DNA of 24,000 bases from an uncultured Thermoplasmatales archaeon (lineage in GTDB: Archaea > Thermoplasmatota > E2 > DHVEG-1): the NCBI GenBank assembly GCA_964347865.1, contig CAYGAC010000006.1, forward strand, positions 6,538-30,537, read 5' to 3'. Position 1 is the first letter of the stretch, and every line of letters begins with the position of its first letter. Positions 12,741-14,698 of the stretch are shown here, one piece after another. The notes beneath the pieces were generated by a model, which did no database searches, was not told where the DNA came from, and was given only the letters and a program-made list of their open reading frames with translations. The position numbers were made by a program, and so were the translations under genes.

Positions 12741-13475
12741 TCACTTGAGTACAGCACTAAGGTGCCCAAAGTGCGGTTCACGCCCAGGTTCAACAAGATA
12801 AACGTCAATTTCTATTTCTCCTGGCTTTGTGCCGATCAAAATCAATCTATCATTGCGTCTTATCAATATACCACCTCTGACTAAGAATTTTAAGAATCCT
12901 TCGTCACCATATTGCCAAGGTAACTCGTAATCTAATTCAATCTCCTGACCAATTTTCAAAGTAGTGGTTTCGACATGTAAAGATATTGTAGTACGGTCAA
13001 CCTTAGGACGATAATCAAGACGTTTATTCAATAGTTCGACCCACGATAGTATCTCCTTAGGGATTTTGCCGAAACTAATTACGCTAAGACAAAGGTTTCC
13101 GCGTGTAAAGAAGATAGCTGGAGGAACACCTTCGGGATGCATAAAAGATACATCGCCTAATTCCTTTGGACCTTTTGGCAGTTGAGCTAGTTGATTCCAC
13201 CGTAATCTATCTACAAGAGCTTCCAACGCCTCCGATGCCGATGGACATTCGACAACGTCAATTAGGATTCTTTCATCTCGATTTTCAGGATTATCCCACA
13301 CTGTTCTTATTACTGACCGTTCTGGTTTTTCAACAAGCCCCTCCTTAACCGAAAGTTGCCAATCTTTTGTATCCTCCACCCAAGGCACAAAACCGATGAA
13401 CATCTCAGCTCGATCGCGTGGGATTCGTCGTCTTAGCGAATCCAAATCATATTTTAATTGAATTTTATCTTTCAT
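12741..13475 (-). CDS. Hypothetical 244-aa protein, translationally coupled partner of the transglutaminase-like protein
   Basis: The ATG lies 8 nt after the upstream stop, and the SD overlaps that stop (TAGGAGGGAAAATG). No signal peptide or TM. No family recognised. Confidence 0.7.
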   Translation of the reverse strand: MKDKIQLKYDLDSLRRRIPRDRAEMFIGFVPWVEDTKDWQLSVKEGLVEKPERSVIRTVWDNPENRDERILIDVVECPSASEALEALVDRLRWNQLAQLPKGPKELGDVSFMHPEGVPPAIFFTRGNLCLSVISFGKIPKEILSWVELLNKRLDYRPKVDRTTISLHVETTTLKIGQEIELDYELPWQYGDEGFLKFLVRGGILIRRNDRLILIGTKPGEIEIDVYLVEPGREPHFGHLSAVLK

Positions 13476-13483
13476 TTTCCCTC

Positions 13484-14698
13484 CTAAGCTACAGGACGAT
13501 GTCTAGGTATGTTCTCTAGATTACCCTCACCACTTTCAATCAATCGATAGCGATAATCTTGAGGATCATTTATCCCAAAACGCATCTTGATTGGATGGTG
13601 TGCAATGTGAACGTTATCAGTATAGTTATTATCCATATCAACCTGCAAACATCCATCATATATAAATTCGTTCTGACCGATTTTGTTTAACCAACAAATT
13701 TCGTGGTAACCCCAGTTCCATGAGACCCAATCGGCCTGAATACTAGGATTACCATTCAGAGTAAGGAACTTTCTTGTTTTCATATTAAAAAAGCGTCCTT
13801 CAACTAAATTACATCCTAATAGATTTGATAGAGTTGTTACTGCGTTAGCGCAATCGGTGCAGTTGAGTTGAAATGTATTACCAGCATCTAGCTTTTGGAG
13901 GTAAGAGGACAAATAGTAAGTAATGAAACCAAAAATTGTAACAGGGGTGTAAGACTGATTTGGATGTGTGTTGATTTTCTTAGTAATGAGTGCAGCCGCT
14001 TTATCTTTTGTACGAGCACCGGCCGCCCAAAAGCATGCTTTATCAAGGGCATCAGTCCAAGGCAATTGTATGTTATCTCGGCCAAATTCTCCCGTGTAAT
14101 TCTGGTTCCACGGCTTTTTTGGTGTCTCCAGCACGACATAGATTCTATGTGCACTTTCCTCGAATTTCTGCCATTGGGTAGCAGGTTTTACTCGATATTC
14201 CCATTGCCATTTCACAGGAAAGATGCCAACACCACGTTTCCAAAGCCAAACATCTTGAAGGTCAAAAGTTTCAAAATCGCTTTTCCCATTACTACCAAAA
14301 GCAATTTCCTTTGCTTTAACGTTTCCTAAGACATTTAACCCGTATCCTATGGAAATTAGGTAAATTAATAGTTTTTTAAGCCATGGCCATTTGTTTAGTA
14401 ATTCTATTAATTTCCCAATCCATCCTTTCGGAAAAGGTGGGGCCGGAGGCTGAATGGCACGAATTTCAACTTTTGAAATGTTAGGAGCAGAACATTCGAA
14501 TTGTGCTTGGATTTGAATAGTATTTCCCTGTGTTTCTTTAATAGAATAAGCTGCACGGGATTGTTCTGGTTTGGTCATGCCTCGGCGCCATTCTGGTATA
14601 ACAATAGGTAAATTAGCATTTTCTCTGATATTCAGAGCATCATTTTTTGCTGATTTTCTATCATGATTGAATTTGATTGCTAAGAGTTGTATGCTCAT
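13484..14698 (-). CDS. Transglutaminase/papain-like (Cys-His-Asp) superfamily protein with an N-terminal beta-rich region and an inserted hydrophobic helix
   Basis: 404 aa. Candidate triad: Cys283 in QLNCTDCANAVTTLSNLLG, His332 in WNWGYHEICWL, Asp348 in FIYDGC. The spacings of 49 and 16 aa are typical of the transglutaminase-like core (C...H..W...D). Hydrophobic insert WIGKLIELLNKWPWLKKLLIYLISIGYGLNVLG (aa 92-125). GGGAGGAAG SD upstream. Confidence 0.6.
   Translation of the reverse strand: MSIQLLAIKFNHDRKSAKNDALNIRENANLPIVIPEWRRGMTKPEQSRAAYSIKETQGNTIQIQAQFECSAPNISKVEIRAIQPPAPPFPKGWIGKLIELLNKWPWLKKLLIYLISIGYGLNVLGNVKAKEIAFGSNGKSDFETFDLQDVWLWKRGVGIFPVKWQWEYRVKPATQWQKFEESAHRIYVVLETPKKPWNQNYTGEFGRDNIQLPWTDALDKACFWAAGARTKDKAAALITKKINTHPNQSYTPVTIFGFITYYLSSYLQKLDAGNTFQLNCTDCANAVTTLSNLLGCNLVEGRFFNMKTRKFLTLNGNPSIQADWVSWNWGYHEICWLNKIGQNEFIYDGCLQVDMDNNYTDNVHIAHHPIKMRFGINDPQDYRYRLIESGEGNLENIPRHRPVA

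Follow-up and report, generated by a model that had tools for sequence, protein, structure and literature searches.

The locus examined here raises the question of what two adjacent genes, absent from the usual family catalogues, are doing together in the genome of an uncultured Thermoplasmatales archaeon. They lie on the minus strand of a 24,000-nucleotide stretch of contig CAYGAC010000006.1, the whole of which is called the window below, and encode a protein of 404 residues (open reading frame, ORF, 13484-14698) followed by one of 244 residues (12741-13475). A preliminary description of this DNA, which had delimited both frames correctly, took the first product for a transglutaminase- or papain-like Cys-His-Asp protein and the second for a candidate inhibitor or immunity factor. 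The first half of this proposal is supported by the fold and by the motif, but not by any hidden Markov model (HMM); the second half gives way here to a different interpretation. In the reading favored below, to which a probability of about 0.6 is given, the cassette would encode a two-subunit, possibly membrane-tethered enzyme of the transglutaminase fold, an acyl-transferase or hydrolase acting through a thioester on cysteine C280. Neither protein matched any entry in searches of Pfam, NCBIfam, PADLOC, PHROG and PDB sequences, the last of which returned nothing meaningful with single sequences or with profiles.

The 404-residue enzyme has more than 338 close homologues, with 45-60% identity, and a profile search at E <= 1e-3 extends its family to 1,872 representative clusters defined at 50% identity. 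An AlphaFold (AF2) model of the protein, built on an alignment of 30 homologues, reached a predicted local distance difference test score (pLDDT) of 87 and a predicted template modeling score (pTM) of 0.85. In this model, the strands found between residues 3 and 189 form a beta-sandwich (approximately residues 1-190) placed directly ahead of a transglutaminase-like core (approximately 210-404), in which a helix (280-292) is followed by four strands (298-308, 331-337, 345-347 and 352-354). The predicted core is thus of the papain/transglutaminase type, with the nucleophilic cysteine at the N-terminus of a helix that precedes a beta-sheet. When the model was compared with the PDB using Foldseek, the top 50 matches were all transglutaminase 3 (TG3), factor XIIIa, TG2 or band 4.2. 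The alignments extend over about 450 columns and span the whole 404-residue query, sandwich and core included, with a best E value of 1.7e-8 and a probability of 1.00. The six canonical PF01841 transglutaminase-like genes of the host genome sit elsewhere and are unrelated to the cassette. In some members of the family, such as P0234 and P0274, the enzyme domain is preceded by Laminin_G_3 (concanavalin-like) domains at the N-terminus and by a hydrophobic segment inside the chain; these may represent an extracellular branch.

The identity of the catalytic residues was addressed by counting conserved positions over 168 diverse family members. The cysteine C280 (codon 13859-13861, minus strand, as for all codons given here) is kept in 168 of them, H332 (13703-13705) in 167 and D348 (13655-13657) in 165. 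The preliminary description had proposed C283 (13850-13852) as the nucleophile, with spacings of 49 and 16 residues to the histidine and the aspartate. The three residues that it named are indeed present in the motifs quoted, and the conservation of the last two is confirmed; C283 itself is kept in only 152 of the 168 sequences, the others having A, S, T, M, V, I, N or F at this position. In the model, C280 occupies the N-terminus of helix 280-292, the predicted catalytic H332 lies on strand 331-337 and D348 just past strand 345-347. In addition, the C-x-D-x12-G spacing formed by C280, D282 and G295 is common to the canonical PF01841 set (C133, D135 and G148 in alignment A5). Because C280 is invariant, stands at the start of the helix and shares this spacing, the most likely triad is C280-H332-D348, with intervals of 52 and 16 residues, and C280 rather than C283 is probably the nucleophile. 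A Cys-His-Asp series in this order is, by the alignment, conserved throughout the family. As for C283, which forms a CxxC motif with C280, a role as redox partner could be envisaged.

The second line of evidence concerns the association of the two genes. In the window, the junction between them (13473-13486, minus strand) reads as the enzyme stop TAG, a spacer of 8 nucleotides and the partner ATG, with a GGAGG Shine-Dalgarno sequence overlapping the stop, exactly as the preliminary description had it. This tight coupling is not peculiar to the archaeon. A partner homologue was found directly downstream of the enzyme gene in all 24 relative loci examined, 23 of them bacterial or metagenomic and the last, L047, from the other major clade of the family, always in the same order and with a gap of 8-14 nucleotides. 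The pair thus occurs outside this genome, and the same design, in which the stop is embedded in the Shine-Dalgarno sequence (TAGGAGG, TAAGGAG or TGAGGAGG, a few more nucleotides, then ATG), is present in most of the bacterial loci. The association holds even where the partner is short (155-165 residues). Moreover, the evolutionary distances of the two proteins co-vary, with a Mantel r of 0.80 that none of 2000 permutations equalled.

A more direct indication of the role of the partner is provided by gene fusions. Among the 148 best representatives of the family, 71 are at least 520 residues long, and in at least 54 of these 71 the partner profile matches the last 230-250 residues (E values down to 5.7e-25), behind linkers of about 20-40 residues. 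Because at least 54 of the 148 representatives thus have the module on the same chain as the enzyme domain and C-terminal to it, the 244-residue partner is to be regarded, from these alignments, as a part of the enzyme that has become separate, and as the homologue of the module that ends the fused relatives. A FastTree phylogeny of 168 rows separates, with 100% support, a clade of 45 rows from a clade of 123 rows that holds every fused form. The 45-row clade contains no fused form and is composed of the window sequence, 12 named bacterial loci in which a separate downstream partner was confirmed, and 32 short, unfused representatives. The tree is unrooted and fits a fission as well as a fusion. 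Since the enzyme falls within this fully supported clade and its partner is adjacent, the window pair belongs to an uncatalogued family in which a transglutaminase-fold enzyme and its partner module are either split or fused.

These fusions bear directly on the toxin/immunity or effector/inhibitor pair previously suggested, in which a harmful cysteine enzyme would be neutralised by the 244-residue protein. Such a pair would explain the tight coupling with the enzyme gene in first position, the patchy, horizontally spread distribution, and the faster evolution of the partner, whose mean identity is 41% as compared with 54% for the enzyme. A protein serving as immunity factor or antitoxin would however hardly be expected to be linked covalently behind its own target, as the partner is in at least 54 representatives, and the fusions therefore favor a two-subunit enzyme. 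The papain-like amidase effector and immunity proteins of the type VI secretion system, Tae4 and Tai4 (PMC6277958), provide a useful reference. As in the cassette, a Cys-His enzyme gene is followed there by a small cognate gene; here, by contrast, the partner is fused in many relatives, no secretion system is found nearby, and the enzyme has a far greater size and includes a beta-sandwich. No trafficking domain or secretion signal was detected, a hydrophobic N-terminus being present in only 3 of 260 relatives, and the genes occur in single copy, devoid of immunity arrays, toxin-cassette neighbours or any match to defence models. A toxin/immunity function is consequently considered improbable.

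The structure of the partner was also predicted with AF2 (pLDDT 91). The model comprises an alpha/beta domain (approximately residues 20-155) and an immunoglobulin-like (Ig-like) sandwich (approximately 160-244), the short partners mentioned above being limited to the alpha/beta domain. Foldseek searches against the PDB and viral models returned only weak and generic Ig-like matches (among them lambda gpV, Hoc and Big_2). A relationship with tail tubes was rejected. The residues common to the split partners and the fused modules (G107, F111, F123, S79 and N127) look structural rather than catalytic, and N94 and H113 are specific to the split clade. In the latter, the motif N94-Q95-L96 is nearly invariant and is followed by an exposed loop, which brings forward the possibility that the partner is a dedicated substrate, which the enzyme would cross-link, deamidate or cleave, for example at this place. 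Several properties of the family speak against it: only 25 of the 54 fused modules retain Q95, stoichiometric coupling and fusion would be unusual for an enzyme and its substrate, and short partners without the Ig-like domain are still paired. This hypothesis is accordingly rated as very improbable.

A further property of the enzyme relates to its location in the cell. The preliminary description had mentioned a hydrophobic or amphipathic insert interrupting the N-terminal beta-rich region, and the model does show a helical hairpin within the beta-sandwich, at residues 90-122 approximately (14333-14431, minus strand; helices 93-102 and 105-119). Of 260 relatives, 84 have their most hydrophobic stretch of 19 residues (Kyte-Doolittle score of at least 1.6 and up to 2.8) between positions 70 and 140, and the hairpin region is, on this hydropathy criterion, a hallmark of the family. 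The hairpin is a possible monotopic membrane anchor. Since strands of the sandwich flank the segment on both sides in the model, a re-entrant or in-plane anchor would be more plausible than a transmembrane pass. No hydrophobic leader was seen at the N-terminus of the enzyme or of the partner by hydropathy only, without SignalP, in agreement with the absence of signal peptides reported earlier.

Taken together, these observations suggest the following mechanism. The cassette would be a self-contained operon of bacterial type encoding the two subunits of a single cytoplasmic cysteine enzyme of the transglutaminase fold. The product of the first gene, made of the beta-sandwich and the core, would use the C280-H332-D348 triad and proceed through an acyl-thioester on C280, while the hydrophobic hairpin in the sandwich may tether it to the membrane. 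The second gene would supply a non-catalytic alpha/beta and Ig-like module, which in many relatives forms the C-terminal half of the same polypeptide, and translational coupling would yield the two chains in matched amounts for the assembly of an obligate complex. The partner would most likely complete or gate the substrate site, matching by its position the C-terminal barrels of the animal transglutaminases, and the reaction itself could be a transamidation, a deamidation or an amide hydrolysis.

Several results weigh against this interpretation. The Pfam models PF01841 (Transglut_core, clan Peptidase_CA), PF00868 and PF00927 do not match the enzyme, and the first of these gives no match even at E <= 1. 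An hhalign comparison of the enzyme alignment with ten canonical PF01841 proteins of the same archaeal order was negative (probability 0.1), and the PDB sequence searches, empty for the enzyme, bring no sequence-level tie to the transglutaminases either. As the sequence and profile searches are negative while Foldseek matches transglutaminases, the tie of the enzyme to these proteins rests on the modelled fold and not on its sequence. The structural superpositions are themselves loose, with TM-scores of 0.38-0.41 and a root-mean-square deviation of about 11 A. On the side of the partner, the N-terminal domain has no confident structural relative, so that a gating comparable to that of the transglutaminase barrels would be an analogy only. 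Finally, the rarity and patchy spread of the enzyme, illustrated by its presence in 2 of 151 Thermoanaerobaculia genomes, would suit a metabolic role no better than an accessory function or one in conflict.

The distribution of the family raises in turn the question of how the cassette reached an archaeon. The archaeal nature of the host was established by its TATA-binding protein (TBP) genes because the genome bin contains no rRNA gene. About six TBP genes are present, seen as 12 TBP-repeat matches on five contigs, and the control matches archaea only. The enzyme was found in only 1 of 61 relatives and, within the phylum, in 1 of 401 genomes; all the named homologues come from bacterial metagenome-assembled genomes, belonging to the Acidobacteriota, Pseudomonadota, Planctomycetota, Myxococcota and Gemmatimonadota. 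The DNA on either side belongs to the host: in a contig of 88 kb, the cassette is enclosed by genes that are orthologous to those of congeners. These congeners possess a glutaminyl-tRNA synthetase (GlnRS) at 80-83% identity with a tRNA-Gln(CUG) beside it, and the similarity of their DNA to the window breaks off at position 11086, to return within the NosD-like genes at about 20.7-21.4 kb. No att-like direct repeat was found bounding the cassette. The GC content of the cassette is 39.7% and that of the remaining DNA of the window 32.6%; the two genes stand at the 92nd-97th percentile of the long ORFs of the genome for GC and for GC at third codon positions (GC3). The value of about 40% given in the preliminary description was thus accurate, but the contrast with the neighbouring gene for a surface protein of 1356 residues is smaller than announced, since the latter has 35.9% GC and not 22-30%. 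Given the archaeal genome, the single occurrence among the 401 genomes of the phylum, the exclusively bacterial homologues, the syntenic flanks and the elevated GC, the cassette is, from these comparisons, regarded as a bacterial gene pair acquired by horizontal transfer into a sediment archaeon.

The same data allow an artefactual explanation to be evaluated. The genome was assembled from a metagenome and the pair is unique within the sample of the phylum, as might be expected from an error of assembly or binning, or from a decaying transferred relic without function in this archaeon. The position of the cassette between congener orthologues in a long contig (GlnRS on one side, NosD-like genes on the other) speaks against such an explanation, as does its GC3 of 0.31-0.32, far under the 46-72% overall GC of every bacterial homologue locus. 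So does the integrity of both ORFs, which keep every family-invariant residue. An artefact or a relic is hence hardly credible.

The rarity of the cassette and its transfer between domains could also denote a two-component module for conflict or against phages, with a partner that would sense a trigger and release or activate the cysteine enzyme. The variability of the surrounding region, where tRNA genes and an integrase are close by, is compatible with this idea, as is the presence of DNA methyltransferase or restriction-modification-like genes adjoining some of the relative loci. The other neighbours are mostly housekeeping genes that differ from one lineage to the next, which would not be expected from such a module; no other conserved neighbour was found at the relative loci, and Pfam scans of 20 flanking genes disclosed no common functional theme. 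Neither protein matched PADLOC-DB 2.0 at E <= 1 or PHROG. A conflict function therefore appears unlikely, and the preferred interpretation remains that of a two-subunit enzyme.

How such an enzyme relates to known systems can now be considered. The animal transglutaminases TG3, factor XIIIa, TG2 and band 4.2 are its sole strong fold matches, over sandwich and core together. As in these proteins, the model places an N-terminal beta-sandwich directly before the core, the cysteine at the N-terminus of a helix and the histidine and aspartate on successive strands. An aromatic residue is found three positions before the histidine, as in the W-x-F-H motif of TG2. The differences are equally clear. 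There is no HMM or profile similarity and no Pfam or PDB sequence match between the two groups, the hydrophobic hairpin belongs to the present enzyme, and the two beta-barrels that end the animal chain have no counterpart here, where the enzyme stops after the core and the partner consists of an alpha/beta domain and a single Ig-like domain. The zymogen of TG3 is cut into fragments of 50 and 27 kDa that stay associated. The catalytic part of about 46 kDa and the C-terminal part of about 28 kDa observed here, on one chain or on two, recall this arrangement, with the difference that the two parts derive from proteolysis in TG3 and from two genes in the window.

The other comparisons are less close. 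AdmF, from the andrimid pathway, is reportedly an acyltransferase homologous to transglutaminases that moves acyl groups via a thioester in a thiotemplated pathway. It resembles the enzyme proposed here in being a cysteine enzyme of the transglutaminase fold, but no gene for a nonribosomal peptide synthetase (NRPS), a polyketide synthase (PKS) or a carrier protein was found near this cassette or near 20 other loci examined. The prokaryotic PF01841 proteins share with the enzyme the superfamily fold, the order of the triad and the C-x-D-x12-G spacing; they differ from it in that their HMM and the hhalign comparison both miss it and in that they have no obligate partner. These prokaryotic transglutaminase-like proteins were described by Makarova, Aravind and Koonin in 1999, according to a 2023 survey of papain-like enzymes (PMC10318531). 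The survey also states that Pfam does not yet define all transglutaminase-like families. Literature searches found no description of the present enzyme family.

The interest of this family is first that, with 1,872 clusters at 50% identity, it is large and yet missing from Pfam, NCBIfam and the PDB, and that the animal transglutaminases, proteins with unclear roots among prokaryotes, are the only ones that resemble it convincingly in structure. The coexistence of split and fused forms indicates that the partner belongs to the enzyme, which changes the function to be expected and calls for both genes to be co-expressed. The idea that the family is the true bacterial counterpart of the animal-type transglutaminases, with sandwich and core in common and a separable C-terminal module gating the active site in the manner of the TG2, TG3 and FXIII barrels, is speculative and must be held as rather doubtful; if it were true, the split and fused forms would offer a simple system to investigate the origin of the gating and that of the metazoan transglutaminases. 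The locus also documents the passage of an intact operon from a bacterium to an archaeon, with a base composition shifted toward that of the host.

The exact limits of the operon deserve some remarks. In the public annotation, the enzyme (P0001) has only 364 residues and begins at M41. As residues N11, A21, P35, E36 and W37 are invariant in the homologues and all precede M41, the start of the 404-residue frame is, by this alignment, the correct one. It is also favored by a GGAGG located 9 nucleotides ahead of its ATG, in the leader of the operon (14699-14725, minus strand). The palindrome CCCATATGGG announced by the preliminary description is present before this GGAGG, at 14715-14724 upstream of the 404-residue gene, and is not unusual, since about 23 palindromes of 10 nucleotides are expected by calculation to arise by chance in 24 kb. 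AT-rich TTTAAAT boxes are found farther upstream; these boxes and the leader might act as a promoter, the sigma-70 consensus used in the scan being uninformative for an archaeon. Directly past the stop of the partner, a consensus scan and the T-runs of the sequence point to a weak hairpin followed by a T-rich sequence (12710-12731, minus strand), a possible end of the transcription unit, in a scan whose matches were no more frequent than in shuffled sequences. The 11-mer TATGGGAATAT occurs exactly at 14718-14728, upstream of the 404-residue gene, and at 21049-21059, upstream of a 575-residue NosD-like gene, in a different orientation relative to each gene. With at most one mismatch, it has 6 sites in place of 1.9 expected, a marginal enrichment reached by 4 of 100 shuffles.

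On the 3' side of the cassette, the tRNA-Gln(CUG) gene mentioned in the preliminary description was found in the window at 10870-10943. Two ORFs separate it from the pair, at 11002-11817 (271 residues) and 12232-12525 (97 residues), and the four genes had been described as a single block. This block is not a unit, because neither the 271-residue nor the 97-residue ORF accompanies the pair at any other locus; the former, absent from five congeners, has moreover a GC content typical of the host. Between GlnRS and tRNA-Gln(CUG), about 1 kb of DNA (9856-10868) contains an ORF on the plus strand (10069-10776) for a hydrophobic protein of 235 residues without family match. In the congeners G001 and G002, the tRNA lies only about 20-40 nucleotides from GlnRS, and the extra segment seems to be a short insertion peculiar to this genome.

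Farther away, a tyrosine recombinase gene (6325-7329; Phage_integrase, E 1e-23; integrase in PHROG) is located about 600 nucleotides from a tRNA-Glu/tRNA-Gln pair (7906-8058). The similarity to G002 stops at these tRNAs (window position 7907), and because of this boundary an integrated element probably occupies the region to the left of position 7900. On the other side of the cassette, the window encodes at 15173-19243 a protein of 1356 residues with a Peptidase_M28 domain, two PKD domains and a NosD/beta-helix region, the many N-x-S/T sequons of which are typical of archaeal surface proteins.

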